Assembly: GCA_040390195.1 (NCBI GenBank)
Contig: JAZJYV010000078.1
Span: 4,362-68,361, forward strand
Source: Pseudomonadota bacterium
GTDB taxonomy: Bacteria > Pseudomonadota > Gammaproteobacteria > Burkholderiales > Burkholderiaceae_D
Direction: 5' to 3'
Length of the DNA: 64,000 nt
Position numbers and translations under genes: made by a program
Notes under the pieces: model-generated
Told to the model about the DNA's origin: nothing
Databases searched by the model: none
What the model saw: only the letters and a program-made list of their open reading frames with translations
Shown: positions 29,529 to 45,031 of the stretch, piece by piece
Layout: each line of letters begins with the position of its first letter
Position numbering within the stretch: the first letter of the stretch is position 1

Positions 29529-32069
29529 TTAGAACTTCACGTCAAGGCGCACGCTGAAGTACTTGAAGGCGTCACGCGCGGGAATCCAGGTGGCCACCTG
29601 GGTCGAGGCCGGCGCCGAGGTGGCGCCCCGGTACGACGGCGTGCCGGCGAAACCGGTGGTCGAGTACTGGCGGTCGAACACGTTGTTGATGAGAAAGCTC
29701 AGCTTGTAGCGGTCCTTCTTCTCGCGGATGCCGAAGCCGAGGTCGACGATCGTGTAGGACGGCACGTAGAAGGCCGGATCCTGCGAGATCACCGTCATCA
29801 TGTCGCTCTGGTACTTGAGCATGCCGGTGAAGAAGGCGTTGAAGCTCGCCTCCGGCAGGCGCAAATCGTACTGGCCGCCGATGACCACGCGCTTTTTCGG
29901 CGCCGACTGCATCGGCGCGCCCGCCAGGTTCTGCACGCCGGTGGTCGAACCGGGCGTGATCGGGAAGCAGGCCGAGTTCTTGCCGGCCAGCGAGCCGTTG
30001 GCCGCCAGCGTCTTCGACGGCGCCAGCGCCACGTTGGTGCTGTCGTTGTAGCAGGAGCCGCCGGTCCATTCGCGCACCGTGGCGTCGGTGTAGGCCAGCG
30101 CCGCGTTGATCGTCAAGTCCTGGGTGACCATGGCGGCGGTGTCGATTTCGAGCCCGCGCGTGCCCACCCGCGGCACGCTGCTGATCTGGGTGAAGATGGT
30201 CGGGTCGCCCGGGTTGGTGTAGGTCGAGGAGGACTGGTAGTTGTAGAAGTTGGTGTCGTAGGCCGTGACGTTGAGCGTCATCCGGTTGTGGAACAGATTG
30301 GCCTTGATGCCCACTTCCTTGGTGCGCGAGGTTTCCGACTGCACCGGCGCGGCGCTGATCGGCGTGATCGTGCTCAGCAGGCCGTAGGCGAGGCCCTTGT
30401 AGCCGGTCGAGACGGTGGCGTAGGCCATCCAGTCGGCGTTGAACTGCTTGGCCAGGCTGAGCTTGCCGGTGAGCTTGCGCTCCTTGTTGTCGATGCTCTC
30501 GAAATAGTCCACGCCCGGCTTGCCGGCGACGAAGGTGGCCGGCGTCATGGTGGTGAAGAAGTTGCGGCCGAAATGGTAGCCCGAGGTTTCCTGGTTCGAG
30601 CGCGCGCCCACCAGCAAGGTGTAGGTCGGCACGAATTCCCAGGTGGCCTGGCCGAAGATCGCCTTGTTGATGTTGTAGACGTCGGTGTTGTAGACCACCG
30701 GGCTGGTGGTCGAGGCGCCGCTGCAGACGGTCGGCGCGCGGCAGTCGCCGCGCGTGAAGAAGCGCTGCGTGGTGTTCTTCGCGTACCACAGGCCGGCCAC
30801 ATAGCGCAGCGTGCCGCTGTCGGGCGAGACCAGGCGCAGTTCCTCGGTCTTGGTCTTGATGTCGTAGGTGCCGCCCTGCGAATTGCCCAAGGTGTAGGGC
30901 ACGGCGCCAGGCAGCGCCACGGTCGGCACGTCGCCCAGGTCCTGGTCGCGGAAGTCATCCGACAGGTAGTGGTCGAGCGAGGTGATCGACATCAGCTGGG
31001 CGCCCGAAGGCAGGCTGTAGGAGATCTTCAGGCCGGCGGTGCGGTCCGAGGAGTTCATCCCGGTCGGGAAGTCGCGCCGCACGAAGGTGTTGTTCGGGCC
31101 CGGCGTGATGCCGTCGAGCGCGCGCGAGGCCGGGATCGCATTGACCGAAGCCGGATTGACCGGTGTCGGCGCGCCGGCCGCGATCAGGTACAGGGGATTG
31201 ACCGGATTGGCGCCGGCCAGCCCGACCTGCACCGGTCCGGTCGGCGAGGTCACGGTCAGCTTGTTGATCGCGTTGGCGCCCTTCGAGTTGGTCTGGTAGT
31301 TGTAGCCCGGCGAGAAAGCGACGTCGAGCTCGTCCGTCAGGTGCCAGGCCAGCTTGGCCAGCAAGGTCTTGCCGCCCGAGCCGTTGATTTTCTCGTTGGT
31401 GGTCAGGTTGGTCAGGTTGCCGGGAAAGCGGGTGTCGCTGGCCGAGACGCGCACGCCGAACTTCTCCGACAGTTCGCCACCGTAGGAAATCCCATAGCGC
31501 CATTCGCCGTCCGAGGTCAGCAAGGCGGTGCTGCGCCCGGCCAGCGGACCGGAAATTGGCTTGGTGATGATGTTGACGGCGCCGGCCACCGCCGATTTGC
31601 CGAACAGGGTGCTCTGCGGCCCCTTCAGCACTTCCACGCGCGAGACGTCGGCCAGGTCCTTGAAGGCCTGGAATTGCTGGGCGATGGGGATGTCGTCGAT
31701 GATGATCGCCACATCGGCTTCGATGCCGATGGTGACGGTGGCGGTGCCGATGCCGCGCATGCTGATGGTGTTGTTGGCGCTGGTCGAACCGGCCGTCACC
31801 GACAGCGCCGGCGTGATCGCCACCAGGTCTTCGGTCTCGCGCAGGTTGGTGCGCTGGATGGTCGCCTCGTTGATCACCGAGATGGCCATCGGCACGCTCT
31901 CGAGTTTTTCGACGCGCTTGTTGGCCGTCACCACCACCACTTCAAGCTGGGCCGGCTCGGGCGCGGTTTGGGCGCTGGCCTGGGCCATCAGCAAGACGGC
32001 CAGCGCGACGGAAGCGGCCACGGGCTTGAGCGGATGGTCGGATGGGGCTCTCAACATCTTGTTCGGCAT
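29529..32069 (-). CDS. TonB-dependent outer-membrane receptor
   Basis: ATG at 32069 after GGAG. Signal peptide, TonB box LEVVVVTA, plug domain (VEVLKGPQSTLFGKSAVAGAVNIITKP) and a C-terminal ...YFSVRLDVKF beta-barrel terminus. Confidence 0.9.
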   Translation of the reverse strand: MPNKMLRAPSDHPLKPVAASVALAVLLMAQASAQTAPEPAQLEVVVVTANKRVEKLESVPMAISVINEATIQRTNLRETEDLVAITPALSVTAGSTSANNTISMRGIGTATVTIGIEADVAIIIDDIPIAQQFQAFKDLADVSRVEVLKGPQSTLFGKSAVAGAVNIITKPISGPLAGRSTALLTSDGEWRYGISYGGELSEKFGVRVSASDTRFPGNLTNLTTNEKINGSGGKTLLAKLAWHLTDELDVAFSPGYNYQTNSKGANAINKLTVTSPTGPVQVGLAGANPVNPLYLIAAGAPTPVNPASVNAIPASRALDGITPGPNNTFVRRDFPTGMNSSDRTAGLKISYSLPSGAQLMSITSLDHYLSDDFRDQDLGDVPTVALPGAVPYTLGNSQGGTYDIKTKTEELRLVSPDSGTLRYVAGLWYAKNTTQRFFTRGDCRAPTVCSGASTTSPVVYNTDVYNINKAIFGQATWEFVPTYTLLVGARSNQETSGYHFGRNFFTTMTPATFVAGKPGVDYFESIDNKERKLTGKLSLAKQFNADWMAYATVSTGYKGLAYGLLSTITPISAAPVQSETSRTKEVGIKANLFHNRMTLNVTAYDTNFYNYQSSSTYTNPGDPTIFTQISSVPRVGTRGLEIDTAAMVTQDLTINAALAYTDATVREWTGGSCYNDSTNVALAPSKTLAANGSLAGKNSACFPITPGSTTGVQNLAGAPMQSAPKKRVVIGGQYDLRLPEASFNAFFTGMLKYQSDMMTVISQDPAFYVPSYTIVDLGFGIREKKDRYKLSFLINNVFDRQYSTTGFAGTPSYRGATSAPASTQVATWIPARDAFKYFSVRLDVKF

Positions 32070-32159
32070 GACGATCTCCAGTAATGTAATTTTTATGTAC
32101 CGCGTTCCGTGTTTCACAGCCGGCGCTGGGTGGCGGGCCACCGTGTTTCCCTCCAATGA

Positions 32160-32178
32160 GGAAAACGTTTAACTGGAT
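32160..32178. promoter_or_regulatory. LacI-type operator O(TBDR): ggaaaacgtttaactggat
   Basis: 19 of 19 identical to 35820..35838. The core AAACGTTT is a palindrome with a central CG, typical of LacI/GalR operators. It abuts the predicted -10. Confidence 0.6.
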
Positions 32179-32205
32179 TCTATGCCATTTTTTCGCGGTG
32201 GTAAA
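32177..32205 (-). promoter_or_regulatory. sigma70-like promoter of the TonB-dependent receptor gene (TTTACC-N17-TAGAAT)
   Basis: Read on the minus strand. Same architecture as 35837..35865, with the operator directly downstream of the -10. Confidence 0.45.
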
Positions 32206-32302
32206 GGCTTAACCAACACGTGTGCAAAAGTGCGTGCCTCGTTGTATTTTTTGCGACACACGGAAGCGGAGCGCGCTATGAGCTGGTGGAATAAAGTAAG
32301 AT

Positions 32303-32318
32303 AGTTAAACGCTTAACT
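32303..32318. promoter_or_regulatory. LacI-type operator upstream of the lyase gene: agttaaacgcttaact
   Basis: Half-sites AGTTAA/TTAACT are perfectly inverted. It lies 15 bp upstream of the ATG at 32333. Confidence 0.5.
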
Positions 32319-32332
32319 ACCGAAGATCGATC

Positions 32333-33511
32333 ATGAAACAGATGAAGTGCGCCCTGCTCGCCTTGATCGCAGTGGCCGGTGCGGCCGCCGCCGCGATGGA
32401 ACCGCAGACCATGGATGGCCGCGACCTCGCCTACACCAAGGCCAGGCTGGCCGCGGCCGATCCGGCCTACCGGCCCGCCTTCGACGCCCTGGTGCACGAT
32501 GCCGACGCCCTGCTGGCGTTGCGCGCCGAATCGGTCACCTACAAGAAGCTCGTCCCGCCCAGCGGCGACAAGCACGACTATCTGAGCCTGGCGCCGTACT
32601 GGTGGCCCGATCCTGCGCGGCCCAATGGCCTGCCATACAAGCTGCGCGACGGCGAATTCAACCCGTCGGCCAAGAACGACGAGACCGATTCGGTGCGCAT
32701 GGGGACGATGTGCCACGGGGTCGAGAAACTGGCGCTGGCCTACTACTTCACGGGTGAGAAGAAATATGCGCTCAAGGCCGCCGAGGCCCTGCGCACCTGG
32801 TTCATCGACCCTGCCACGCGCATGCACCCGAACCTGCAATTCGGCCAGGCGGTGATGGGCAAGGTCGAAGGGCGCGGCACCGGTTTGATCGACACCCGCA
32901 ATCTGTGGATGGTCACCGATGGCGTGGCGCTGATCGAGACCTCGGGCGCGCTGTCGCAGGCCGAGGTGGGTGCCATCAAGCAGTGGTTCGGCGCATTCGG
33001 CGGCTGGATGCGCACCAGCCGGCTGGGCCAGGACGAGGCGCAGGCGGCCAACAACCACGGCATGTTTTACGATATGCAGCTGGCCGCGTATGCCTTGTTT
33101 ACCGGCGAGCAGGAGCTGGCCAGGAGCGCCGTGCGCAACGCGCTCGAGCAGCGCATCGCGCAACAGGTCGAGCCCGATGGCAGTCAGCCGCGCGAGCTGG
33201 CGCGCACCACGCCGTTTCACTACAGCGCGTTCAATCTCGATGCGATGACCACGCTGGCACGCTACGGCGAACAGCTCGGGATTGATGTCTGGCACGCGCG
33301 CGGCATGCGCCGCGCGATCGATTACCTGCTGCCCTACAGCGTCAGTCCGGCCAGCTGGCCGCACAAGGAATTGCGCGGGCCGGAGACCGCGATGATGCTG
33401 CCGATCTTGCTGCGCGCCGAGCGCGCGTATGGGACGGGGGAGTATGCACCGGCGGCGGTGGGCGCGCAGGACAGCGTCGAGCGCCTGATCTGGCCGCTCA
33501 GGTCACGTTGA
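32333..33511 (+). CDS. polysaccharide lyase, alginate-lyase domain (PL5-like), secreted
   Basis: Signal peptide MKQMKCALLALIAVAGAAAAA. The motif QAANNHGMFYDMQLA corresponds to NNHSYW of AlgL and A1-III, and RTTPFHYSAFNL corresponds to the catalytic R...HY segment. Confidence 0.75.
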   Translation: MKQMKCALLALIAVAGAAAAAMEPQTMDGRDLAYTKARLAAADPAYRPAFDALVHDADALLALRAESVTYKKLVPPSGDKHDYLSLAPYWWPDPARPNGLPYKLRDGEFNPSAKNDETDSVRMGTMCHGVEKLALAYYFTGEKKYALKAAEALRTWFIDPATRMHPNLQFGQAVMGKVEGRGTGLIDTRNLWMVTDGVALIETSGALSQAEVGAIKQWFGAFGGWMRTSRLGQDEAQAANNHGMFYDMQLAAYALFTGEQELARSAVRNALEQRIAQQVEPDGSQPRELARTTPFHYSAFNLDAMTTLARYGEQLGIDVWHARGMRRAIDYLLPYSVSPASWPHKELRGPETAMMLPILLRAERAYGTGEYAPAAVGAQDSVERLIWPLRSR

Positions 33512-33926
33512 TTCCGCCCCGCGGCTCATTGGCAAGGTGCTGCGCCAGGTTGCTCGATTTGCCTTCCCACGCCGGCGCTATTTCGTCGATGTGCAAAGTG
33601 ATGCCAATCGCGTGCGTGTCGAACAGCGCCTGGAAATGCTGCTGCACGATCTCGAGCAAGGCCTGGCCCGCGCGCGCGACAGTGGCCTTGGCGCGCCCCG
33701 GCGTGATGCGCAAATTGAGGTACACGAAAGCGTAGCCCTCGCGCGCGCCCGCGACCGCGTGATGTGGCGCCGGCGCAGCGAGCACACGCGTGCCGGCCAG
33801 TGGAAACAGCGGCTGGCCGGCGTCGTCGCGCAAGGCCGCCAGCTCCACCGCCAGGGCCCGGCACAGCACGCCGACATCGGTGCAGGCTTCGAGGTTGGCG
33901 CTGTAGTCGATCTTCAAATGCGGCAT
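33498..33926 (-). CDS. 5-carboxymethyl-2-hydroxymuconate isomerase (CHMI)-like tautomerase-superfamily protein
   Basis: MPHLKIDYSANL... (Pro-1 after Met removal), FPLAGTRV, YAFVYLNLRI and GITLHIDEI align with HpcD/HpaF as recalled. Its start is 7 bp from the stop of the upstream 621-aa gene. Confidence 0.72.
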   Translation of the reverse strand: MPHLKIDYSANLEACTDVGVLCRALAVELAALRDDAGQPLFPLAGTRVLAAPAPHHAVAGAREGYAFVYLNLRITPGRAKATVARAGQALLEIVQQHFQALFDTHAIGITLHIDEIAPAWEGKSSNLAQHLANEPRGGINVT

Positions 33927-33933
33927 CTCGCCC

Positions 33934-35799
33934 TCAATGGTATTGAATGACCCACTTGACCGTGAGCGGCGCGTCGAACAGGAAGTCCTTGCTGGCGCAG
34001 CTGACGTGGGTCTGCATCGGCCCGTAAGGCGCCTTGAACGGTTCCTTGCCCAGGGTAGCCTCGGCGCTGCAGGCGGCCAGGCCGCTGACCGTAAACGCGC
34101 TCACGTCGCCGTCGGCGAAGCGGACCTCGGTGCCGGCCACAGTGGCGCCGCCTGAAAACGAGGCGAACTCCAGGCTCAATTGCGCTACCTTGAGCGGTGC
34201 GCGCGGCGTATAGGTATCGGTGCGGGTGAGCTTGCCGGACTCGAAGCTGTATTCGGTCGCCAGCGTGATGCGCTCATCCTTGACTGGATCGCCCTTGCCC
34301 ACCTTGTCCAGCCCATCCTGCCTGTAGCGCACCAGCTGGCGTGCGCCGTCGCGCGCCGTGCTGATGTCCTTGATGTAGGCGGCGCCGATCAGCTGGCTGC
34401 CGTCGGCGAGCGTAAACCTGGGCAGCAGCTGGGCGTGTTCCGGACCACTGTCGGCGGTCCCCGAGATCACACCGTTCGCGAACGGCAGTGGATAGTACGG
34501 GCTGTTCGCGTGCTGCCAGGTACCGCCGTTGACCATGCTCAGGCTGAAGACATGGCCGCGGTCGCGGAACTGTGCCAGCGCGCGCTCGTACTCGCCCTGC
34601 GCATACCAGGTCAGGCTGAATGGCGGCTGGTTCTGGTCGAACCACGCCTGCAGGTCGGCCTTGGGCAGTTGCCCTTTCATGCCCGCCTTGTTCCACAATT
34701 CGTTGGTGAAGATCAGCTGGTGCAGCAGCGAGAAATTTTCACCCAGGATGCGATACTTGGCGCGGTAGGTATCGGTGCGGCGGCCCTTGCCCCACATGTC
34801 GACCGAGTGGATCGCCGGGTCGTACCAGAAGTCGACGTACTTGGCCACGATGTGGTTGGCATAGCTGTAGGCGTACAGTTTTTCCTGCGGCGTGAGCACC
34901 TCCAGATAGGCCGACACCGACAGGATTTCGAGGATCGCCGTCTCGCCGTAGGGCCCCAGGCTGCGCCCGAAACTGAAGCCGTCGCCGGCCGGATTGCCCA
35001 GCTTGAGCGCCAGCGCGGCGGCCTTGCGCAGCATCGCCTTGAGCTCCGGCGTGACGGTCATGCCGGTCTCGATGAAGCGCTCGCAGATCTCGGCCGCCAG
35101 CAAGATGCTGTAGCGGTCGAAGCGGCCCTCACCGGGTGTCTCGTCGGAGAAGCCGTACTTGCCGGAGTAGGCCTCGTAATGCTTCATCATCTTCTCGAGC
35201 AGCACCTTGCTGGCGCTGTCGTCTTCCCAGCCGAGCAGCATGCGCAGGCGCGCCACGCTGAAGGCCACGCCGAAGTAATTGGTCGGCAGCTTGATCAGCT
35301 CATAGTCGGGCGTGGTGACGAATTTTCGCCAGTCCAGGCTGGCCCTGAGCGAGGCCAGCGTGGCCGGGCTGACCGCCTGCTCCAGCAAGCCCGCCTGCTT
35401 CAGGCTGTACAAGGCTTGCAGGTAGTAGTAAGTGCCCCAGGTGTGGTTGTCCATGCCGGCGGTGAGGTCGGCGATGGTGCGGAACTGGCGCAGCCGCTGC
35501 GCGCGGCGCGGGTCGTCGGCGGCCATGTTCAGCAGCGCATGCGACAGGCCGACGGCGATTTTGCCGGGCAAAAACTTGTCGCTGGCCTTGAACGCGGCCA
35601 CGCCGTCGAGCGTGACCTCGCCCTGCTCGGCGGCCAGCTTGTCGAACAGGTAGTCGAGCTGGGGATACAGCTGCTGCTGCACGATCTGCTGCATTGGGGT
35701 GTGCGCCAGCGGTGCGAGGTAGGCGGTGGTGGGCTGGGCGGCATGCGCCTGCAGCGTGACGGCCAGCAGCGCGGCGCCAAATACGGATTTGAAGTGCAT
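33934..35799 (-). CDS. secreted protein of unknown function (621 aa), candidate polysaccharide-active enzyme
   Basis: Signal peptide MHFKSVFGAALLAVTLQAHAA and strong coding signal. Its own promoter and operator lie upstream. No family recognised by eye. Confidence 0.7.
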   Translation of the reverse strand: MHFKSVFGAALLAVTLQAHAAQPTTAYLAPLAHTPMQQIVQQQLYPQLDYLFDKLAAEQGEVTLDGVAAFKASDKFLPGKIAVGLSHALLNMAADDPRRAQRLRQFRTIADLTAGMDNHTWGTYYYLQALYSLKQAGLLEQAVSPATLASLRASLDWRKFVTTPDYELIKLPTNYFGVAFSVARLRMLLGWEDDSASKVLLEKMMKHYEAYSGKYGFSDETPGEGRFDRYSILLAAEICERFIETGMTVTPELKAMLRKAAALALKLGNPAGDGFSFGRSLGPYGETAILEILSVSAYLEVLTPQEKLYAYSYANHIVAKYVDFWYDPAIHSVDMWGKGRRTDTYRAKYRILGENFSLLHQLIFTNELWNKAGMKGQLPKADLQAWFDQNQPPFSLTWYAQGEYERALAQFRDRGHVFSLSMVNGGTWQHANSPYYPLPFANGVISGTADSGPEHAQLLPRFTLADGSQLIGAAYIKDISTARDGARQLVRYRQDGLDKVGKGDPVKDERITLATEYSFESGKLTRTDTYTPRAPLKVAQLSLEFASFSGGATVAGTEVRFADGDVSAFTVSGLAACSAEATLGKEPFKAPYGPMQTHVSCASKDFLFDAPLTVKWVIQYH

Positions 35800-35819
35800 G
35801 GTCTCGATCCAGAGAAATT

Positions 35820-35838
35820 GGAAAACGTTTAACTGGAT
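35820..35838. promoter_or_regulatory. LacI-type operator O(621): ggaaaacgtttaactggat
   Basis: Identical 19-mer to 32160..32178. Lies 21 bp upstream of the 621-aa gene start and abuts the predicted -10. Confidence 0.6.
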
Positions 35839-35865
35839 AGTAGGCGATTTCCTCCGGCTGGTAAA
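35837..35865 (-). promoter_or_regulatory. sigma70-like promoter of the 621-aa gene operon (TTTACC-N17-TACTAT)
   Basis: Read on the minus strand. Paralogous in layout to 32177..32205. Confidence 0.45.
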
Positions 35866-35906
35866 GTCTTGCTTTAAAAAATAACTGGCATGCCGGGACA
35901 GGCAAG

Positions 35907-35920
35907 GGAAAACGTTTGAC
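35907..35920. promoter_or_regulatory. auxiliary LacI-type operator: ggaaaacgtttgac
   Basis: Matches the operator core. It lies about 85 bp (about 8 helical turns) from the centre of the 35820 operator and is flush with the lacI-family gene stop. Confidence 0.4.
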
Positions 35921-36913
35921 TCAACGCCGGCTGAGCGTCGACGCGCGCAGGATCAATTGCGGCTCGACCGTGGTCAAGTCCTTGGTCGGCTTGCCGTTGA
36001 TGATCTCGATGAGTTTTTCCATCGCCTCCACGCCCATCCGCTCGCTTTGCAGGTCGACCGTGGTCAAGGGTGGCGAGGTGTAGCGGCCGAACTGGATATT
36101 GTCGAAGCCGGCCACCGAAATATCGGCCGGCACCCGAAACCCCAGGGTCTGCGCCTCCTTCATGAAGCCGAGCGCCATCAAGTCGTTGTAGCAGATCAGC
36201 GCGTCCGGATGCCCGGCGCCGAGCATGATGGCCGAGCTCACACGCTCACCCTCGAGCGCGGACGGTGCCAGTGCATCGTAGGTGGTCAGGTCGAGCTGGT
36301 TCGCATCGAGGCAGGCGCGGATACCGCCCATGCGGTCCTGGTCGCGGCGCGAGCGCGAAAAACCCAGGTAGGCGATGCGTTTGTGCCCCAGTGCCACCAG
36401 GTGCTGCGCAACCATGTAGGCGCCGCGGTGGTCGTCGCTGCTCACGCACGGCAGCTTGAGCTCGGAGAGCCGGCCGAAATACACGATCGGCTTGTCGAGC
36501 TTCACGACCCAGCCCATGTCCTGCTCCTGCATGCGCGAAAACAGGATCATGCCATCCACGCGCCGGCTCAGCGCTTCGATCAGCGGCCGTTCGCGGTCGG
36601 GATTCTCATCCGTGTCGACCAGCAGCAGCGTGTAGCCGTGTTCGAGCGCGACCCGGTTGGCGCCCTTGACGATGCTGGTGAAATGGGGATTGCTGATGTC
36701 GAGCACCGACAGGCCGATCGTCTTGGTGCGTCCCGTGATCATCGACTGGGCCAGCGGATTGGAGCGGTATCCCAGTTGCTCGATGACGAGCTTGATGGTG
36801 GCCTCGACGCCCGGCGAGAAGCGCTGCGCGCCGTTCACGTATTTCGACACCGTGGCGGTCGACACGCCGGCGGCGGCGGCCACATCTCGGATGGTTGGGA
36901 TGCTTTTTTTCAT
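35921..36913 (-). CDS. LacI family transcriptional regulator
   Basis: ATG at 36913. MKKSIPTIRDVAAAAGVSTATVSKYVNG is the canonical LacI HTH, followed by a periplasmic-binding-fold sugar domain. Confidence 0.9.
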   Translation of the reverse strand: MKKSIPTIRDVAAAAGVSTATVSKYVNGAQRFSPGVEATIKLVIEQLGYRSNPLAQSMITGRTKTIGLSVLDISNPHFTSIVKGANRVALEHGYTLLLVDTDENPDRERPLIEALSRRVDGMILFSRMQEQDMGWVVKLDKPIVYFGRLSELKLPCVSSDDHRGAYMVAQHLVALGHKRIAYLGFSRSRRDQDRMGGIRACLDANQLDLTTYDALAPSALEGERVSSAIMLGAGHPDALICYNDLMALGFMKEAQTLGFRVPADISVAGFDNIQFGRYTSPPLTTVDLQSERMGVEAMEKLIEIINGKPTKDLTTVEPQLILRASTLSRR

Positions 36914-36920
36914 GTAATTA

Positions 36921-36934
36921 GGTAACCGATTAAC
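36921..36934. promoter_or_regulatory. degenerate operator upstream of the LacI-family gene (gttaatcggttacc on the minus strand)
   Basis: 11 of 14 match to GTTAAACGTTTAAC. Lies 8 bp upstream of the regulator ATG, so autoregulation is possible. Confidence 0.3.
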
Positions 36935-37151
36935 TGTCCAGCACATAGCGAAGTTACACGACATCCCGCCATCTGTACAGGGGTAGTGGCGGGTGACGAA
37001 TGTTGGCATGATGACATATTTCCCCAGCGCCGCCCAGCCGGTCCGCCTTGCCCCGCGCCCGCCTTGCGCGCGGGGCACTGCGCGGCGTCGGCGGCGCGCC
37101 CGGCGGGTATTGGCGGCCGGGGCAGCCACTGGCGTCGATTCGAGAAAACGA

Positions 37152-37179: not shown

Positions 37180-37182
37180 CTA

Positions 37183-38075: not shown

Positions 38076-38097
38076 ACATCGTCGCCCAACGTCGCCT

Positions 38098-38156
38098 AAA
38101 AAAACCGGGGTCAGAACACGTTTTCATGGAAAACGTGTTCTGACCCCGGTTTTTTT
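38098..38156. terminator. bidirectional Rho-independent terminator
   Basis: aaaaaaa-ccggggtcagaacacgttttc-atg-gaaaacgtgttctgaccccgg-ttttttt. Perfect 21-bp stem with A and T tracts on either side, between convergent udh and the mutarotase gene. Confidence 0.85.
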
Positions 38157-38161
38157 GGATG

Positions 38162-39268
38162 TCAATCGAAGCGGTAGCTGGTCGTTGAGCGAAATTGCTG
38201 GCCGGGCGCCAGGCGCGTCGTGGGGAAGTTGGGATGGTTCGGACTGTCCGGCAGATGCTGGGTTTCGAACGCGAAGCCGTCATGGCGGCGGTAGCCCACA
38301 CCCTCGCTGCCAATCTCGCTGCCGTCAAATCCGTTGCCGCTGTTGAACTGGACCGACGGTTCCGTGCTGGCCACCCGCAAACGCCGGCCGCTGCCCGTTT
38401 CCACGATCTCGGCGACCAGCGCCAGCGCGCCATCCTTTTTTGAGAACAGCAGGGAATGGTCGAAGCCGGGCGGATCGCCCAGCAGTGCCGAGGCGCGCAG
38501 CCGTGGCATCACCGCCGCCGCTCGCCGCAAGTCGAGCGGCGTGCCCGCCACCGGCAACAACACGCCGGTCGGCACTCGCTTCGCGTCGGTTTCGGCAAAG
38601 CGCGCCGCGTGAATCGTGAAACGGTGTGTCGCCAGACCGCCGCTGCCGGCGCCGGCCAGGTTGAAGTAGGCGTGGTTGGTCAGGTTGATCACGGTCGGCG
38701 CGTCGCTGCTGGCCGCGTACTCGATCCGGAATTCATTGTGCTTGCGCAGCAGCCGGTAGGTCACGCTGATCTCGACCCGGCCCGGAAAATGCTGGTCGCC
38801 GTCGGGGCTGGTCAGCCGGTACACGGATCCGAGCGAGTCGGCGTCGGCAAAGTCGCGCCGCTGCCAGACCCGCCTGTCGAAGCCATCCGGATCGCCATGC
38901 AGGGCCGTGCCTTTGGCGTTCGGCACCAGCTCCACCGGCCGGCCATCTTGCATGAAGCGGGCGTTTCCAATGCGCCCGGCGTAGCGTCCCATGATGGCGC
39001 CGTAGCGTCGACCGGTGGCCTCGTAATCGGCCAGAGTGGGAAGGCTGAGGACCACGTTGCGACGCTGGCCGTGGCGATCGGCCACTTCGATCGCGGTCAG
39101 CGTGGCGCCGTAGTCGATGTAGGAGACGCGCATGCCGCGCAGGTTCTCCAGCGTAACGCGGCCGACCGCCTGGCCGGCGCGGGTGTGGCCCCAGTCCTGG
39201 GCCTGGATGGCGGCACCGGCGGACGCGCTGGCGCACAGCAGGCAAGCGGCCAGCGCCCGCAGTGCCAC
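38162..39268 (-). CDS. aldose 1-epimerase (mutarotase) family protein with predicted signal peptide
   Basis: Motifs GGRYGAIMGRYAGRI, LHGDPDGFDRRVW, NLTNHAYFNL and FETQHLPDSPN. The likely GTG start at 39268 gives VALRALAACLLCASASAGAA and sits immediately after the upstream stop codon. The longer track ORF would overlap the lactonase gene. Confidence 0.78.
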   Translation of the reverse strand: MALRALAACLLCASASAGAAIQAQDWGHTRAGQAVGRVTLENLRGMRVSYIDYGATLTAIEVADRHGQRRNVVLSLPTLADYEATGRRYGAIMGRYAGRIGNARFMQDGRPVELVPNAKGTALHGDPDGFDRRVWQRRDFADADSLGSVYRLTSPDGDQHFPGRVEISVTYRLLRKHNEFRIEYAASSDAPTVINLTNHAYFNLAGAGSGGLATHRFTIHAARFAETDAKRVPTGVLLPVAGTPLDLRRAAAVMPRLRASALLGDPPGFDHSLLFSKKDGALALVAEIVETGSGRRLRVASTEPSVQFNSGNGFDGSEIGSEGVGYRRHDGFAFETQHLPDSPNHPNFPTTRLAPGQQFRSTTSYRFD

Positions 39269-39269: not shown

Positions 39270-40154
39270 CTAGCCCCGGTACAGGGTTTCGGCGACGCCC
39301 TTGACGCCGGGACGCAGCAGGAGCGTCGCTCCGGCCCAGCCGTCGCCAGGCGCCGCGCCGGCGCCAATCGAAGTCACCAGCAGCGTGTCGAGATCGGGGC
39401 CGCCAAAGCTGCACATCGACGGTTTGGCCATCGGCAGCTCAATCTTGCGGTCGAGCGTGCCCTCGGGCGTGAAGCGCAGCAGGCAACCGCCGTCGTTACC
39501 GCAGATCCAGTAGCAGCCTTCGCTGTCGACGGCCGCGCCGTCGGGACGACCGGGCAGTGCGTTCATGTCGACGAACAGGCGCCGGTTGTGCGGTATGCCT
39601 TCGTCGGTGTCGTAGTCGAACGACCAGATCAACTGGCGCGCGCCATGCGAGTCGGACAGGTACATGGTGCGTCCATCGGGCGAGAACGCCAGTCCGTTCT
39701 GGGTGATCAGGCCCGACACGATCGGCTCGGACAGTCCATCCTGGGCGCTGTAGCGGTACAGCTGGCCAACCGGGCTGGCGGCGGCCATGTCCATGAACAT
39801 GGTGCCGCTCCAGAAGCGGCCCTGGCGGTCGCAGCGCCCGTCATTGAAGCGCATGCCGGGGCCCAGCTCGGGCGGCGCCGCCAGCAGCGTCGGCGTCGCC
39901 ATCTGCTCTTCGCCCAGCGCCAGGCTGAAGATGCCGCTCTCCATGCCGGCGATCACGCCGCCGCTGTCCTTGAAGGCGAGGCAGGCCACCATCTCGGTGC
40001 CGTGCCAGTTGCGCAGCGCGCCGCTGGCCGCATCCAGGCGCCAGATGCGGCGCGCCGGTATATCCACCCAGTACCACGCGTTTTCAAGCGCGTTCCAGAC
40101 CGGGCATTCGCCCACCGTGCACGTCATGTCGCTGACGCGTTCCATACTGACCAT
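39270..40154 (-). CDS. SMP-30/gluconolactonase/LRE family lactonase (probable uronolactonase)
   Basis: CTVGECPVWN, RFNDGRCD, NGLAFSPDG and PDGAAVDSEGCYW motifs of the six-bladed propeller lactonases. Confidence 0.85.
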   Translation of the reverse strand: MVSMERVSDMTCTVGECPVWNALENAWYWVDIPARRIWRLDAASGALRNWHGTEMVACLAFKDSGGVIAGMESGIFSLALGEEQMATPTLLAAPPELGPGMRFNDGRCDRQGRFWSGTMFMDMAAASPVGQLYRYSAQDGLSEPIVSGLITQNGLAFSPDGRTMYLSDSHGARQLIWSFDYDTDEGIPHNRRLFVDMNALPGRPDGAAVDSEGCYWICGNDGGCLLRFTPEGTLDRKIELPMAKPSMCSFGGPDLDTLLVTSIGAGAAPGDGWAGATLLLRPGVKGVAETLYRG

Positions 40155-40164: not shown

Positions 40165-41517
40165 TTATAAATCGGTGATTTCCTTGTGCGCCGGGACCAG
40201 CGTCTTCATGATGCACCAGGCCAGCAAGTAGACCACGGCGCAGCCCGAGAACATGATCATGTAGCCCGTTTCAAGATGCCCCTGCCCCTTGTAGTAGTCG
40301 AACAGCCAGCCGCCGATCTTGGTGATCAATACGCCGCCAAGGCCGCCGGCCATGCCGCCGATGCCAACCACCGAGCCGACCGAGTGCTTCGGGAACATGT
40401 CCGACACGGTCGTAAACAGATTGGCCGACCAGGCCTGGTGCGCCGAAGCCCCGACACCGATCAGCAGCACCGGCACCCAGTAGCTGTAGTGGCCAAGCGG
40501 CTGGGCCGCCAGCACCACCAGCGGGAAAAAGGCGATCGTCAGCATGGCCTTCATGCGCCCGTTGTAGGCGCTGTCGCCACGCTTGATGAAGTAGGCGGGG
40601 AACCAGCCGCCGCCGATGCTGCCGACCATCGTCATGCTGTACAACACAGCCAGCGGCACGACGATCGCGGTCTGGCCCATGTGGTACTGCTCGGACAGGA
40701 ATTTCGGCAGCCAAAACAGGAAGAACCACCACACGCCGTCGGTGAGGAATTTGGCGATCGTAAACGACCATGTCTGGCGATAGCCGAGCAATTTGAACCA
40801 GGACGCCTTGGCCAGCGGCGCCGCCTCCTGCACCGCATCGCTGTTGATGTAGGCCAGTTCGTCGGCCGTCATGCGCTTCTGGCGCGCCGGCGTGTCGTAG
40901 AACAGGTTCCACACGCCCATCCAGATGAATCCGATCGCACCGATCAGGATGAAGGTCGCTTCCCAGCCCCAGGCTTCGGCGATCATCGGCACCGTCAGCG
41001 GCGCCAGGATCGCGCCGACATTGGCGCCCGAGTTGAAAATACCGGTCGCGAACGAGCGCTCCTTGCGCGGGAAATAGTCGGCCGTGGCCTTGATCGCGGC
41101 CGGGAAGTTGCCCGCTTCGCCCAGCGCCAGCACCGCACGGCCGAACATGAAGCCGGCAATCGAGACTGGAATTGCAGCGATCCCCAGCGAGGTCAGCACG
41201 TTGTTGACGGCGACCCCGGTGCTGAGCGCAAACGCATGCGAGATGGCACCGATCGACCAGATGCCGATCGCCAGCAGGTAGGCGCGCTTGGTGCCGATCT
41301 TGTCGATCACGCGGCCGGCAAACAGCATGGCGATCGCGTACACGAACTGGAATGTCGACGTGATGTTGGCGTAGTCGGTATTGGTCCAGCCGAATTTGGC
41401 CGACAGGTCCGAAGCCAGCAGGCTCAAAACCTGGCGATCCAGGTAGTTGACGGTGGTTGCGAAGAACAACAGGGCACAGATGGTCCACCTGTATTTGCCG
41501 ATGGCTTGCTGATTCAT
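40165..41517 (-). CDS. MFS transporter, hexuronate (ExuT)-like
   Basis: MNQQAIGKYRWTICALLFFATTVNYLDRQVLS is the typical ACS/ExuT N-terminus. About 12 hydrophobic segments. Confidence 0.85.
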   Translation of the reverse strand: MNQQAIGKYRWTICALLFFATTVNYLDRQVLSLLASDLSAKFGWTNTDYANITSTFQFVYAIAMLFAGRVIDKIGTKRAYLLAIGIWSIGAISHAFALSTGVAVNNVLTSLGIAAIPVSIAGFMFGRAVLALGEAGNFPAAIKATADYFPRKERSFATGIFNSGANVGAILAPLTVPMIAEAWGWEATFILIGAIGFIWMGVWNLFYDTPARQKRMTADELAYINSDAVQEAAPLAKASWFKLLGYRQTWSFTIAKFLTDGVWWFFLFWLPKFLSEQYHMGQTAIVVPLAVLYSMTMVGSIGGGWFPAYFIKRGDSAYNGRMKAMLTIAFFPLVVLAAQPLGHYSYWVPVLLIGVGASAHQAWSANLFTTVSDMFPKHSVGSVVGIGGMAGGLGGVLITKIGGWLFDYYKGQGHLETGYMIMFSGCAVVYLLAWCIMKTLVPAHKEITDL

Positions 41518-41652: not shown

Positions 41653-41658
41653 GACTTA

Positions 41659-43239
41659 TTACTTTGCCAGTTGCAGCTCGCCGTCGATCAGGCGCGCCAG
41701 GCCCAGCGGGTTGGCAGGGGCAATCGCGGCCGGCAGCAGGTCGACCGGCACGTTCTGATAACATACCGGCCGCAGGAAGCGGTCGATGGCGCTGGCGCCA
41801 ACCGAGGTGCTGCGGCTGTCCGAGGTGGCCGGGAACGGGCCGCCATGAACCATCGCGTGCGACACCTCGACCCCGGTCGGGTAGGCGTTGAACAGGATGC
41901 GGCCGGCCTTGCGCTCGAGCGTGGGCATGAGCGTGTTGGCCAGCGCACTGTCGGCCGCGACCGCATGCACCGTTGCCGTCAGCTGGCCTTCGACGTGGCG
42001 CGCCACCTGGCGCAACTGGTCGGCGTCGGCGCAGCGCACCAGCAGCGCGCACGGGCCGAAGATTTCGTCTTCCAGCGCCGGGCTCGACAAGTAGGTCTGC
42101 GCCTCGCACAGGTACAACGCCGCCTGCGCCGCGCAGCCGGCGCCTTCACGCTGGCCTTGCGCGACCAGTTGCACGCCGTCGACGCCGGACAGGCGTTCAA
42201 TGCCGCCAGTGTATGCCTTGTGGATGCCCGGCGTGAGCATGGTGCCGGCACCCTTGGCCTGCAGCGCGACGCCAGCGGCGGCGACGAACTGGTCGAAATC
42301 GGCACCGGCCAGGCCGAGCACCAGGCCCGGATTGGTGCAGAACTGGCCGACGCCGAGCGTGAGCGAATCGACGAAACCCTGGGCCAGCGCCGCGCCGCTC
42401 GAAGCGAGCGCGCCCGGCAGCATGAACACCGGATTAATCGAGCTCATTTCAGCGTACACGGGAATCGGTTCCTTGCGCGCGGCCGCGGTGCGCATCAGTG
42501 CCACGCCGCCCTGGCGCGAACCGGTGAAGCCGACCGCCTTGACGGCCGGATGGCCAACCAAGCTCTGGCCGATCTGGCGACCATCGCCGAACAGCATCGA
42601 GAACACGCCTTCCGGCAGGGCGCAATCGGCGACCGCCTTTTGCACCGCGCGTCCGACCAGCTCCGAGGTGCCAAGGTGGGCACCGTGGGCCTTGACGATC
42701 ACCGGGCAGCCGGCCGCCAGGGCCGAGGCGGTGTCGCCGCCAGCCACCGAGAACGCCAGCGGGAAATTGCTGGCGCCGAACACCACCACCGGGCCCAATG
42801 CAATCTTGCGCAGGCGCAGATCGGGCCGCGGCGGCGCGCGATCGGGCAGCGCCGAATCGATCGTCGCGTGCAGCCAGTGGCCGTCGCGCACCACCTTGGC
42901 GAACAGGCGCAGCTGGTTCACGGTGCGTCCGCGCTCGCCTTCGAGGCGGGCGGCAGGCAAGCCGCTCTCCTGCGAGGCCCGCTCGATCAGCAGCGGGCCG
43001 ATCGCCAGGATGTTCTCGGCGATCTTTTCAAGGAAGGCGGCGCGCTGTTCGAGCGTCGTTTCGCGGTAGGCGTCGAAGGCTTGTTCGGCCAGCGCGCAAG
43101 CGGCGTCGACGTCAGCCTGGGTGGCCAGGCCGAACGACGGCTCGATGCTCGCGTTGCGCGCCGGGTCGATCGCTTGCACGACGCCTGCCGTGCCGCGCAC
43201 GCTGCGCTGGCCAATGACCATTTCGCCGGTAATGTGCAT
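41659..43239 (-). CDS. alpha-ketoglutaric semialdehyde (2,5-dioxovalerate) dehydrogenase
   Basis: 526 aa. The N-terminus [16 protein letters not shown]... and length match the KGSADH subgroup of ALDHs. Catalytic GQFCTNPG motif. AGGAG RBS. Confidence 0.83.
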
Positions 43240-43266
43240 GTACTGCTCCTGAATCTGTGAGTTGAA

Positions 43267-44178
43267 TTATTGGGCGCCCTGGGCGCGGATCAGCTTGAGC
43301 AGCATCGCATCTTCTTCCGCCGTCAGGTCGGTCAAAGGCGTGCGCACCGGACCGCCGCTGTGGCCGACCAGGCGCGCGCCGGCCTTGACGATGCTCACTG
43401 CGTAGCCGGCCTTGCGGTTGCGGATCTCCAGGTACGGCAGGAAGAACTGGTCGAGCAGGCGGTTGGTCGTGGCATGGTCGTCGGCCGCGACGGCATGGTA
43501 GAAGTCCATCGCCAGCTGCGGCATGAAGTTGAACACGGCCGAGGAATACACGGGCACGCCCAGCGCCTTGTACGCTGCCGCGTAGACTTCCGCGGTTGGC
43601 AGGCCGCCCAGGTAACTGAAGCGGTCTCCCATGCGACGCCAGATCGACACCATCAATTCGATGTCGCCAATGCCGTCCTTGAAGCCGATCAGGTTCGGGC
43701 AGCGCCCGGCCAGTTTCTCGAGCGAGTCGGGCGTGAGGCGGCACACGCCGCGGTTGTACACCACCACCCCGAAGTCGACCGATTTGCAGACCGCCTCGAC
43801 GTGCGCCACCAGGCCATCCTGGCTCGCTTCGGTCAGGTAGTGCGGCAGCAGCAGCACGCCCTGGGCGCCGAGGCGCTCTGCCTCTTGCGCGCAGGCGATG
43901 GCGCTGCGGGTCGGGCCGCCGGCACCGGCCAGGATCGGCACCTTGCCATGGCAGGTGTCGACCGCGACCTTGATCACGTCCGAGAACTCGGGCGCCGTCA
44001 GCGAGAAGAACTCGCCGGTGCCGCCGGCGGCGAACAGGGCGCTGGCGCCGTAGGGGGCGAGCCACTCGAGGCGCTCGGCGTAGGTGGCAGGGTTGAAATT
44101 GCCGGCCGCGTCGAAGTCGGTGATCGGGAAGGAGAGCAGGCCGGACGAGAGGATTTGTTTGAGTTCTTGGGGATTCAT
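43267..44178 (-). CDS. kdgD: 5-dehydro-4-deoxyglucarate dehydratase
   Basis: ATG at 44178. [24 protein letters not shown] and GFKDGIGD (Schiff-base Lys region) are DapA-fold KdgD signatures. Confidence 0.9.
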
Positions 44179-44253
44179 GAAGAGAGGCTCCTGGGGGTGT
44201 TGTCGTTGTTCTGGACTAAGTGATGCGTTATCGTACAACTTGATTCAAGATAA

Positions 44254-44273
44254 GGCAAGCATTAAAGCTTGCC
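44254..44273 (-). terminator. hairpin downstream of the GntR-family gene (ggcaagc-tttaat-gcttgcc, then ttatctt)
   Basis: 7-bp stem with a weak U tract. Assigned by position only. Confidence 0.3.
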
Positions 44274-44281
44274 CGCACCGT

Positions 44282-45031
44282 TTAGCTGGCGCCCGCCTCG
44301 ATCCGCAGCTGGGCCTGGCGCAGACGCTCGCGGCTGTTGCTCAGGTGGGTGCGCATGGCCGCGCGGGCCGCCTCCTGGTCCTGGCGCAAGATGGCGCTGT
44401 AGATGTCCTCGTGCTCGCGGTTCACCCGCACCAGGTAGTCGGCCGGCCGGTCCTGCTGCTCCATGCCGGGGGTGTTGACGCGCGCACGGGGGATGATGGT
44501 GTTGCCCAGCTGGCTGAGGATTTCCACGAAATAGCGGTTGCCGGTGGCTTGGGCGATCAGCAGGTGGAACTGGACGTCGGCCTCGACCGAGGCCTTGCCT
44601 TGTGCCGTGGCAGTTTGCATGTCGGCCAGCGCGCGGCCCAGCGCCTGCACCTGCTCCTCGCTGCGGCGCGCCGCCGCCAGCCAGGCCGCCTCGGTCTCCA
44701 TGCTGATGCGCAGCTCGAGGATGGCCAGCACGTCGAGCACGGTGAAAATGCTGTCGGCGCCGATGCCCAGTCCGGACTGGGGACGCTCGAGCACGAAGGT
44801 GCCGATGCCGTGGCGGGTTTGCGCCAGACCGGCCGCCTGCAGGTGCGAGATCGCCTCGCGCACCACCGTGCGGCTCACGCCGTGCAGCGCCATGATGGCC
44901 GACTCGGTGGGCAGCTTGTCGCCTGGCTTGAGCAAGCCTTGCTGGATCTGGTTGGTGATGTCTTCAATCACGCCCTGGGCGAGGTTGCGATGCTTCTTGC
45001 GCGGGAATGGCGAGGCAGGGGCTGTGTTCAT
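44282..45031 (-). CDS. GntR/FadR family transcriptional regulator (FCD domain)
   Basis: ATG at 45031. LKPGDKLPTESAIMALHGVSRTVVREAISHLQAAGL is a GntR wHTH, followed by an FCD-like C-terminus. Confidence 0.88.
   Translation of the reverse strand: MNTAPASPFPRKKHRNLAQGVIEDITNQIQQGLLKPGDKLPTESAIMALHGVSRTVVREAISHLQAAGLAQTRHGIGTFVLERPQSGLGIGADSIFTVLDVLAILELRISMETEAAWLAAARRSEEQVQALGRALADMQTATAQGKASVEADVQFHLLIAQATGNRYFVEILSQLGNTIIPRARVNTPGMEQQDRPADYLVRVNREHEDIYSAILRQDQEAARAAMRTHLSNSRERLRQAQLRIEAGAS

Follow-up and report, generated by a model that had tools for sequence, protein, structure and literature searches.

A predicted polyuronate locus that pairs a LacI-controlled lyase module with an oxidative uronate operon

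Described routes for uronate utilization

The oxidative hexuronate pathway, known from Agrobacterium tumefaciens, Pseudomonas and Burkholderiales, leads from uronate dehydrogenase (Udh) through the lactonases UxuL/UxuF, or Gli/Gci, to GudD or GarD, and then to KdgD and KGSADH; lactonases working between Udh and the dehydratases have been described (PMC6353982). The 4,5-unsaturated uronates are handled by the KduI/KduD/KdgK/Eda route, with KdgF (PMC6353982). Flavobacterium sp. UMI-01 has an oxidative pathway for DEHU that involves FlRed, FlDet and FlDeg (Nishiyama et al., 2021, PMC8563752), and Brevundimonas sp. SH203 degrades cellouronate (beta-1,4-glucuronan) using the endo-lyase CUL-I, of family PL38, and the exo-lyase CUL-II (PMC12423752).

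The locus described here lies in a 64-kb stretch of DNA that was analysed as a whole (the window). With the oxidative hexuronate pathway it shares Udh, an SGL-family lactonase, KdgD, an aldehyde dehydrogenase encoded after kdgD, a sugar-acid transporter of the MFS type and a GntR-family regulator, and the route proposed for it has the same end product, 2-oxoglutarate. Unlike that pathway, the window lacks GudD, GarD and Gci, puts udh and polysaccharide lyase genes under one LacI repressor, and has a periplasmic mutarotase as well as a CHMI-like tautomerase. The Flavobacterium pathway has the logic of a shortcut, in which a lyase-made monomer passes via keto-deoxy-glucarate and 2-oxoglutarate semialdehyde to 2-oxoglutarate without an aldarate dehydratase. 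There, however, the monomer is the erythro isomer from alginate, and the enzymes are a DEH-reductase-type SDR oxidant and an RraA-family dehydratase/decarboxylase; in the window the substrate, judged from the genes alone, is likely threo, and the candidate enzymes are Udh and KdgD, of the DHDPS family. As in Brevundimonas SH203, a secreted PL38-type lyase is paired with a second secreted enzyme, of 621 aa, that may finish the conversion of oligomers to monomers. The lyase is likened to CUL-I by its family and the 621-aa protein to CUL-II by its proposed role, and both would presumably act on glucuronan. The KduI/KduD/KdgK/Eda route takes the same lyase products, and its genes occur in more distant loci of the 621-aa family, whereas close loci hold Udh, and often the CHMI-like protein, in their place.

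Gene content and regulation of the two modules

All genes of the original prediction were recovered in place. The lyase module begins with a gene for a TonB-dependent outer-membrane receptor (29529-32156, reverse strand) with Plug and TonB_dep_Rec beta-barrel domains; the gene caller puts its start at ~32069, which gives 846 aa. The lyase gene (32333-33511, forward strand) encodes a protein with a predicted signal peptide and a match to PF05426 (Pfam Alginate_lyase) of 298 bits. This protein had been labelled PL5-like. Its matches in the PDB are PL38 structures only (3NFV, 3e-84; BoPL38, 8BDQ and 9FHT-9FHZ, 6e-61), and no PL5 structure was matched even at E ≤ 10; thus the label was wrong and a PL5-like identity was rejected. 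Glucuronan lyases, among them CUL-I, belong to PL38 (PMC12423752), and the enzyme is probably an endo-glucuronan lyase.

The 621-aa protein (33934-35799, reverse strand) carries a signal peptide and has no sequence match in Pfam, NCBIfam or the PDB, whether searched singly or as a profile. Its family comprises 331 clusters at 50% identity, in which N174, D219, R226, D228, Y230, R279, W325, W336, Y345, R346, R350 and Y435 are invariant. An AlphaFold model (pLDDT 86) has an (alpha/alpha)-toroid and a beta-sandwich, and its best Foldseek matches are PL33, PL35, PL15, PL8, PL12 and PL17 (E down to 2e-12, TM ~0.5). The protein, earlier described as unknown, belongs to an uncharacterised family but is not featureless, given the lyase fold of the model. 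On the basis of this fold, we propose that it may be a second (exo/oligo) lyase. The gene for the CHMI-like protein (33498-33926, reverse strand) begins 8 bp past the 621-aa gene. The product matches PF02962 (104 bits) and scores 51 bits against the NCBIfam CHMI equivalog, far under the cut-off of 215. It begins with Met-Pro, and Pro-1 is kept in orthologues; the lack of a signal peptide points to a cytoplasmic location. It is a CHMI-like member of the tautomerase superfamily and may have a role in the pathway.

Also encoded are a LacI-family repressor (35921-36913, reverse strand; LacI and Peripla_BP domains, called product 330 aa) and, transcribed divergently from lacI, Udh (37248-38075, forward strand). 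The latter matches solved Udh structures (6MFH, 6.6e-87; 3AY3, 6.2e-83; 3RFT, 1.3e-77) and shares 73-81% identity with Udh proteins encoded in other LacI/621-aa loci; for the GntR-linked Udh of Massilia putida the figure is 61%. A bidirectional intrinsic terminator (~38096-38157), seen directly in the sequence as a long perfect hairpin with A-runs and T-runs at its flanks, separates udh from the convergent mutarotase gene.

The oxidative module lies on the reverse strand and is headed by a gene for a GntR/FCD regulator (44282-45031; GntR and FCD domains). KdgD, 5-dehydro-4-deoxyglucarate dehydratase/decarboxylase (43267-44178), is confidently identified (TIGR03249, 431.9 bits vs. a cut-off of 374; NF002958, 468 bits). 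The 526-aa aldehyde dehydrogenase (41659-43239; Aldedh, 158 bits) falls far under the cut-off of every KGSADH equivalog (104 bits vs. 770); its gene comes after kdgD in all related loci, and we presume that it is a 2-oxoglutarate semialdehyde dehydrogenase. The MFS sugar-acid transporter (40165-41517; MFS_1 domain) scores 169 bits for the D-galactonate transporter subfamily TIGR00893, under its cut-off. The SMP-30/SGL (gluconolactonase-family) lactonase (39270-40154; PF08450, 259 bits) has no NCBIfam equivalog match and is presumed to be a uronate-lactone hydrolase. The module ends with a mutarotase (aldose-1-epimerase, GalM-like; 38162-39268; PF01263, 239 bits; NF008277, 269 bits vs. a cut-off of 240) that has a signal peptide and is periplasmic. 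Mutarotases occur in 621-aa loci whether these are of the Udh or of the KduI/KduD type. Lactonase and mutarotase together suit pyranose uronates that yield lactones.

A palindromic 14-bp operator, GTTAAACGTTTAAC, is present in seven copies (at 32160, 32200, 32304, 35820, 35907, 36921 and 37183, spanning 32160-37196), against 0.43 expected at ≤3 mismatches. It precedes the genes for the TonB receptor (32160-32173) and the lyase (32304-32317, ending 16 bp short of the ATG), the 621-aa/CHMI operon, lacI (36921-36934, directly upstream) and udh. No copy was found in the window outside the promoter regions of the lyase module, and no LacI-type operator lies upstream of the GntR/FCD gene of the kdgD operon. 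The motif keeps its positions in four related loci (L002, L085, L086 and L087) and is missing from the M. putida loci L003 and L004. By its operator, udh belongs to the lyase module and shares its LacI regulon, which supports a functional link between the lyase and oxidative modules, as had originally been supposed.

Related loci and the location of the dehydratase

Of 22 close loci, 20 have a udh gene no more than 10 kb from the gene for the 621-aa protein, and none has KduI, KduD or KdgK. The distant loci (48-60% identity) show the reverse, with Udh in one, KduI in four and KduD in five of 13, a distribution that looks like a pathway swap. The CHMI-like protein is linked in 9/22 close and 0/13 distant loci. 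The recurrence of kdgD beside the 621-aa module also bears out the pairing, as at least four gene orders were seen (the window, L090 and L104; L101 and L108; L097; L122, L124 and L125). In other loci a GH88 gene is co-transcribed with udh; the product of GH88 is 5-keto-4-deoxyuronate (PMC12269599).

A Pfam scan of all sizeable ORFs of the window revealed no MR_MLE, GD_AH, KduI, PfkB or KDPG-aldolase domain. Six-frame tblastn of the window with GudD, GarD, KduI, KduD, KdgK, Eda, UxaC and UxaA as queries (E ≤ 1e-3) gave a single match, to a 22%-identical SDR region in a FabI-like gene. GudD, GarD, a Gci-type enolase, KduI, KdgK and Eda are thus absent from the whole 64 kb, and the original claim that the window has neither a dehydratase or cycloisomerase nor KduI/KduD/KdgK/Eda is correct.

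The argument built on this absence is not supported. In a Duganella-like relative (L087), gudD ends a homologous LacI-controlled operon, 621-CHMI-GH2-GH3-gudD, and is a true gudD (TIGR03247, 846 bits vs. a cut-off of 828.7); glucarate is therefore an intermediate in sister loci. On contig Ga0209282_1000002, the 621/CHMI/KdgD locus L108 resembles that of the window and likewise lacks a dehydratase, and ~160 kb away on this contig lies the arrangement udh-GH88 / TBDR-GH2-GH3-gudD-lacI (L174). In M. putida, garD (900.7 bits vs. a cut-off of 730.85) adjoins a second kdgD (L004), and a kdgD-ALDH-MFS-lactonase operon like that of the window occurs with Udh and GntR and without lyases (L003). A 621-aa homologue and GudD also occur together on many Duganella contigs, including ones of 11.7 and 15.6 kb (paired by equal size). 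Because relatives encode gudD or garD in a homologous operon or elsewhere, the missing dehydratase is weak evidence. A gudD, garD or gci gene in the same regulon, which the original prediction had named as evidence against itself, was thus found in relatives and not in the window. Two GudD proteins considered as candidates for this genome proved to come from other assemblies.

Possible routes from polymer to 2-oxoglutarate

In sister loci the slot of the lyase is filled by a Smlt1473-like PL5 lyase, a PF14099 lyase or GH88. These enzymes and the PL38 assignment favour a threo, glucuronate-type substrate and agree with the earlier guess of such a polymer over alginate. We infer that the substrate is glucuronan (a beta-glucuronan-type polyuronate).

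The host is a Massilia-type soil bacterium. The best reading, to which we give a probability of roughly 0.55, is that it follows the classical oxidative uronate route with a dehydratase supplied in trans. Two cooperating regulatory units would use the polyuronate. The first, the LacI regulon, comprises LacI itself, the TonB receptor, two secreted enzymes (the PL38 lyase and the 621-aa protein with its lyase fold), the CHMI-like tautomerase and Udh; it would import and depolymerise the polymer and oxidise uronate monomers at C1. The second, the GntR-headed operon, encodes KdgD and the aldehyde dehydrogenase along with the MFS transporter, the SGL lactonase and the periplasmic mutarotase; it would take in monomers, open the aldarolactone and turn 5-keto-4-deoxyglucarate into 2-oxoglutarate. 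Conversion of glucarate or galactarate to 5-keto-4-deoxyglucarate would most likely fall to a gudD or garD elsewhere in this genome, as in close relatives.

Several observations sit poorly with the classical route: the window itself has no dehydratase, KduI, KduD and KdgK are not linked in the close loci, and the CHMI-like tautomerase is left without a role. Should the two secreted enzymes both prove to be lyases, almost every monomer would be 4,5-unsaturated and little carbon would pass through the classical route; neither GH2 nor another obvious source of saturated glucuronate was found at the window locus.

A tentative alternative, less probable than the classical route, is that lyase-made 4,5-unsaturated glucuronate is oxidised at C1, in either of two ways, to give 5-keto-4-deoxyglucarate directly for KdgD. 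The common LacI operator of udh and the lyase genes, the co-transcription of udh with GH88, and the exchange of KduI, KduD and KdgK for Udh in close loci all favour it, as does a CHMI-like protein with the catalytic Pro-1 of enol-keto tautomerases in a module that appears to be lyase-only. The KdgD substrate agrees with threo stereochemistry, and there is precedent in the SDR FlRed, which oxidises DEHU to 2-keto-3-deoxy-glucarate on the way to 2-oxoglutarate (PMC8563752). The concept is thus not new: experiments published in 2021 demonstrated that a different set of enzymes takes a lyase monomer, alginate-derived DEHU, through keto-deoxy-glucarate to 2-oxoglutarate (PMC8563752). Against it, our literature search found no biochemical report of any Udh taking an unsaturated or ring-opened monomer, gudD in the homologous operon places glucarate on the path in sister loci, and in L101 and L108 the 621/CHMI/KdgD genes lack a udh gene at a distance of up to 10 kb. 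KduI and KduD may also simply be encoded elsewhere, and the lyase activity of the 621-aa protein is predicted from its fold. The original reading is partly supported: the module linkage, the guess of a threo-type polymer and the Udh distribution speak for it, and the argument from absence is not supported. If true, the shortcut could operate alongside a GudD branch for saturated glucuronate.

Alginate, the polymer implied by the Pfam label, is an improbable substrate; erythro DEHU would then be oxidised and passed to KdgD in a version of the Flavobacterium route. BoPL38, a true alginate lyase in PL38, cuts polyM, polyG and polyMG (bioRxiv 10.1101/2024.12.11.627697), and oxidative DEHU metabolism has precedent (PMC8563752). 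However, KdgD is not known to accept the erythro isomer (PMC8563752), both an FlDet-type RraA protein and a DEH reductase are absent from the 64-kb window, and the sister-locus partners (GH88, GH2, GH3, the Smlt1473-like PL5 lyase and the PF14099 lyase) point to glucuronate-containing glycans.

Chance adjacency, with Udh and the kdgD operon serving only free hexuronates and the lyases, for example, turnover of the cell's own exopolysaccharide, is slightly less probable still: the M. putida Udh/GntR/kdgD operon does come without lyase genes and each unit has its own regulator, but udh carries the LacI operator and accompanies the 621-aa gene in most close loci, and kdgD returns beside the 621-aa module in several independent arrangements.

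Gene content and regulation

The locus is most likely (probability roughly 0.55) a LacI-controlled polyglucuronate module combined with the classical oxidative uronate pathway, for which gudD or garD is encoded elsewhere in the genome. Every gene originally predicted for it was found again in the window, with spurious overlapping ORFs sorted from real genes via codon-position GC content. The lyase module consists of genes for a TonB-dependent receptor (29529-32156, - strand), a PF05426 lyase (32333-33511, +), a CHMI-like protein (33498-33926, -), a 621-aa protein without a family match (33934-35799, -), LacI (35921-36913, -) and the uronate dehydrogenase Udh (37248-38075, +). A hairpin terminator for both strands lies at about 38096-38157. 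The kdgD operon encodes a mutarotase (38162-39268), an SGL lactonase (39270-40154), an MFS transporter (40165-41517), a 526-aa aldehyde dehydrogenase (41659-43239), KdgD (43267-44178) and GntR (44282-45031), all on the - strand. The window has a GC content of ~65%, and several of its proteins have their nearest relatives in Massilia, Duganella and Undibacterium; the source organism is a member of the Oxalobacteraceae, Massilia group. NCBI assembly GCA_040384345.1 also contains the 621-aa protein.

The 14-bp palindrome GTTAAACGTTTAAC, a LacI-type operator, occurs seven times in the window at up to three mismatches (0.43 copies expected), and all copies precede the receptor, the lyase, the 621-aa/CHMI operon, lacI or udh. 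None was identified near the gntR-kdgD operon or elsewhere in the 64 kb. The motif recurs at identical intergenic positions in four related loci, and was not found in two M. putida loci devoid of lyase genes. From the placement and conservation of this operator, udh is predicted to be a member of the polysaccharide regulon.

The 43 bp that separate gntR from kdgD contain a 20-bp near-perfect palindrome, GGCAAGCATTAAAGCTTGCC (44254-44273), which might act as a binding site for GntR or as an attenuating hairpin.

Enzymes of the two modules

When compared with all PDB sequences, the PF05426 lyase matches 3NFV (3e-84) and the BoPL38 structures 8BDQ and 9FHT-9FHZ (6e-61) and no others, and it is assigned to PL38 by sequence similarity. 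The original prediction had called this enzyme PL5-like, a label that we abandon, as no PL5 structure (AlgL, A1-III, Smlt1473) is matched even at E<=10; an AlgL-type NCBIfam match is also lacking. In contrast, the lyase of L086, one of the related loci compared (L-numbers), matches Smlt1473 (7FHU) at 2e-48. Members of PL38 include glucuronan and alginate lyases (CUL-I, BlCUL1, BoPL38) (PMC12423752; bioRxiv 10.1101/2024.12.11.627697).

The 621-aa protein has a signal peptide. Searches of Pfam and NCBIfam, phmmer against the PDB and a 40-member profile run against the PDB identified no sequence relative, and 40 diverse members of the family have zero Pfam matches. In the AlphaFold model (pLDDT 86), a beta-sandwich follows an (alpha/alpha) toroid, and the structures that the model most resembles are polysaccharide lyases from families PL33, PL35, PL15, PL8, PL12 and PL17 (Foldseek E values of 2e-12 to 1e-8 and TM of about 0.5 for the PL33, PL35, PL15 and PL8 structures). 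Thus, the protein described earlier as unknown does belong to no described family by sequence, but the toroid plus beta-sandwich fold of lyases is recognisable in its model. The family is small (331 clusters at 50% identity), and certain Asn, Tyr, Arg, Asp and Trp residues are invariant across it. Judging from the model, the protein is probably a second lyase that acts on oligomers, with a hydrolase as the alternative. Distant homologues are associated with KduI, KduD and KdgK, which supports formation of 4,5-unsaturated uronates by this family.

The polymer-cutting genes vary among the close loci and include PL38, PL5 of the Smlt1473 type (L086), a PF14099 lyase, GH88, GH2 and GH3, all compatible with a glucuronate-rich glycan. 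No sequence relative of the PF14099 lyase (L085) was found in the PDB, and the putative link of this enzyme to PL20 glucuronan lyase comes solely from the Pfam family.

KdgD is confidently identified, with 431.9 bits to TIGR03249 (equivalog cut-off 373.95), 468 bits to NF002958 and 171 bits to PF00701, the last in keeping with a DHDPS fold. Residues 13-272 of Udh match the solved uronate dehydrogenases 3AY3 (6e-83) and 3RFT (1e-77), and similarity to characterised Udh predicts the activity EC 1.1.1.203, with NAD+ as the oxidant of D-glucuronate or D-galacturonate. Identity is 73-81% to Udh of other LacI/621-aa loci, but only 61% to M. putida Udh, whose gene is linked to GntR. The gene directly behind kdgD encodes a protein of the Aldedh family that scores 104 bits against the equivalog for KGSADH (2-oxoglutarate semialdehyde dehydrogenase), for which the cut-off is 770.

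The CHMI-like protein, which is cytoplasmic, belongs to the CHMI family of the tautomerase superfamily (PF02962, 104 bits; gathering cut-off 26.5). Its N-terminus is Met-Pro-His, and this is kept in orthologues; an N-terminal proline is the catalytic residue of tautomerases. Assignment to the HpcD equivalog was rejected (51 bits vs a cut-off of 215).

The mutarotase is a GalM-like aldose-1-epimerase with a signal peptide, and is therefore probably periplasmic. To our knowledge, a periplasmic mutarotase is unusual in polyuronate loci. Its gene accompanies that of the 621-aa protein in Udh-type as well as KduI/KduD-type loci (the window, L085, L092, L100, L125, L129, L133 and L152), often right behind the TonB receptor, and the enzyme might function in ring opening or in anomer supply for released uronates.

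Proposed routes from lyase products to 2-oxoglutarate

The classical oxidative route requires GudD/GarD or Gci between Udh and KdgD, and none of these is encoded within the 64-kb window. Pfam scans of all sizeable ORFs identified no enolase-superfamily, GarD/UxaA-type, KduI, PfkB or KDPG-aldolase domain, and tblastn with GudD, GarD, KduI, KduD, KdgK, Eda, UxaC and UxaA gave no real match. The predicted absence of a dehydratase and of KduI, KduD, KdgK and Eda thus holds across the whole stretch. The step taken from this absence to direct oxidation of lyase products is not supported, as relatives have gudD in the homologous operon or ~160 kb away. Aldarate dehydratases were identified in several of them: gudD in L087 (Duganella-like), L114 and the metagenomic L174, and garD in L004 (M. 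putida). In L087, a 621-CHMI-GH2-GH3 operon closes with a true gudD (846 bits; cut-off 828.7). Many Duganella contigs, some of only 11.7 and 15.6 kb, appear to carry both a 621-aa homologue and GudD, judging from contigs of the same size.

A related locus without a dehydratase does occur. On a 1.07-Mb metagenomic contig, MFS-mutarotase-LacI-621-CHMI faces lactonase-ALDH-KdgD-GntR, and neither Udh nor a dehydratase is encoded there (L108). However, on the same contig ~160 kb away, udh-GH88 faces TBDR-GH2-GH3-gudD-lacI (L174). M. putida encodes a kdgD-ALDH-MFS-lactonase operon with Udh and GntR and lacks the lyases; its garD is elsewhere, adjoining a second kdgD. With M. putida GarD as the query, about nine Massilia loci were among the matches listed. 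By comparison with these relatives, whose dehydratases are encoded elsewhere, kdgD loci without a dehydratase appear to be normal in this family and complemented in trans.

Related loci were sampled around 621-aa homologues, with five contexts taken from genomes and 80 from metagenomes, and were annotated by tblastn with a reference set. Counts cover features within 10 kb in those 35 loci whose 621-aa gene is flanked by 6 kb or more in each direction, and loci were split by 621-aa identity (>=60%, n = 22, close; 48-60%, n = 13, distant). Udh was identified in 20 of the 22 close loci vs one of the 13 distant ones. The CHMI-like gene (9/22), KdgD (5/22) and GudD (2/22) were found only in close loci. 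KduI, KduD and KdgK occur in four, five and four of the 13 distant loci, respectively, and in none of the close ones. The route through KduI, KduD, KdgK and Eda requires four genes; tblastn with the E. coli proteins finds none in the window, and they are absent from the 22 close loci too. It is possible, and we suggest it tentatively, that Oxalobacteraceae exchanged the KduI/KduD/KdgK route for lyase products for an oxidative one of five steps.

In such a scheme, the PL38 lyase and the 621-aa protein, as a new lyase family, would release 4,5-unsaturated glucuronate, Udh would oxidise its C1, and the SGL lactonase would open the product. The CHMI-like tautomerase would then ketonise the opened compound to 5-keto-4-deoxyglucarate, which KdgD and then the aldehyde dehydrogenase would convert to 2-oxoglutarate. 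GudD would serve just a minor saturated fraction, and the periplasmic mutarotase would aid anomer interconversion or ring opening. For the present locus, we consider this dehydratase-independent oxidation less likely than the classical route, although it does have real circumstantial support. Lyase and GH88 genes are accompanied by Udh and not by KduI/KduD, and in sister loci udh and GH88 form one transcription unit. The window module is apparently lyase-only, so that monomers would be almost all unsaturated, and the attached Pro-1 tautomerase could ketonise an enol formed from the opened unsaturated uronate or from the oxidised lactone. A gudD gene in the same regulon makes the direct route unnecessary, without disproving it because both branches would converge on KdgD. 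Our literature searches yielded no description of Udh activity on unsaturated or ring-opened uronates, nor of a tautomerase in uronate catabolism.

An oxidative pathway for alginate-derived DEHU is described in Flavobacterium sp. UMI-01, where FlRed (SDR), FlDet (RraA-family) and FlDeg (aldehyde dehydrogenase) lead via 2-keto-3-deoxy-glucarate and 2-oxoglutarate semialdehyde to 2-oxoglutarate (PMC8563752). Unlike that system, the window encodes neither an RraA-family KDGR dehydratase/decarboxylase (FlDet) nor a DEH-reductase-type SDR (FlRed). No RraA domain was found in the scanned ORFs, and a FabI-like gene (49.3-50.6 kb) is the sole other SDR. The same authors state that acceptance of the erythro isomer by KdgD is unknown (PMC8563752), a remark that agrees with the earlier argument that KdgD stereochemistry favours threo over erythro substrates.

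That the lyase and oxidative modules are chance neighbours is rejected, given the operator-defined regulon and its conservation, the adjacency of kdgD and the Udh counts. In several loci, kdgD adjoins the 621-aa module in differing gene orders; thus, the link between them is not a single inherited arrangement.

Under the preferred reading, that of a LacI-controlled module with a dehydratase in trans, soil Oxalobacteraceae couple polyglucuronate depolymerisation to the oxidative uronate pathway via a defined LacI operator. This reading also highlights an uncharacterised lyase-fold family (~330 clusters at 50% identity), with loci that suggest a function in uronate metabolism. If true, direct C1 oxidation would be a second, NAD(P)H-sparing way to use lyase products, here threo uronates via Udh and KdgD, would give the tautomerase superfamily a part in sugar-acid catabolism, and would offer metabolic engineering a short route to 2-oxoglutarate that starts from glucuronan or pectin-type lyase products. 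The finding overall is a variation on known systems and is not new in kind. Among its new elements, the most solid are the regulon delimited by the operator, the uncharacterised family with a lyase fold and the replacement of KduI/KduD by Udh across lineages.

Other arrangements were also observed. In the metagenomic loci L101 and L108, genes for the 621-aa protein, CHMI-like protein, lactonase, ALDH, KdgD, GntR, MFS and mutarotase occur together, with Udh absent within 10 kb. In L129 (17843-19186, +), and also in L133 and L136, the gene immediately upstream of Udh encodes a GudD-related enolase-superfamily protein. This protein reaches just 257 bits with TIGR03247, is 34% identical to GudD and could be a lactone cycloisomerase or uronate dehydratase; the locus also has KduI, KduD and KdgK. 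We did not identify a KdgF-like cupin as a counterpart to the CHMI-like gene beside KduI in L129, where a 115-aa ORF has no Pfam match.

Genomic surroundings

To the left of the locus are signalling genes, and to its right bacA/recQ. Genes for cyclic-di-GMP and two-component signalling are dense at 18059-29465 and 60929-63997, and encode GAF-GGDEF-EAL-REC, PAS histidine kinase, HD-GYP with DUF3391, triple-PAS hybrid kinase and Reg_prop/Y_Y_Y-PAS-GGDEF proteins. A second aldehyde dehydrogenase (25539-27050, -; Aldedh, 294 bits) is encoded 2.5 kb to the left of the locus, flanked by the genes for a PAS histidine kinase on one side and for an HD-GYP protein on the other. There is no LacI operator close by, so this enzyme is probably unrelated to the locus, although it is another potential aldehyde oxidiser.

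GC content falls to 0.54-0.56 (vs ~0.66) at 10000-16000 and 53000-58000, where several ORFs have no Pfam match; these stretches may be horizontally acquired islands. Also encoded, at 50218-53028 (+), is a 936-aa protein with a weak match to 7-bladed beta-propeller lactonase and a match to phosphoesterase (PF04185).
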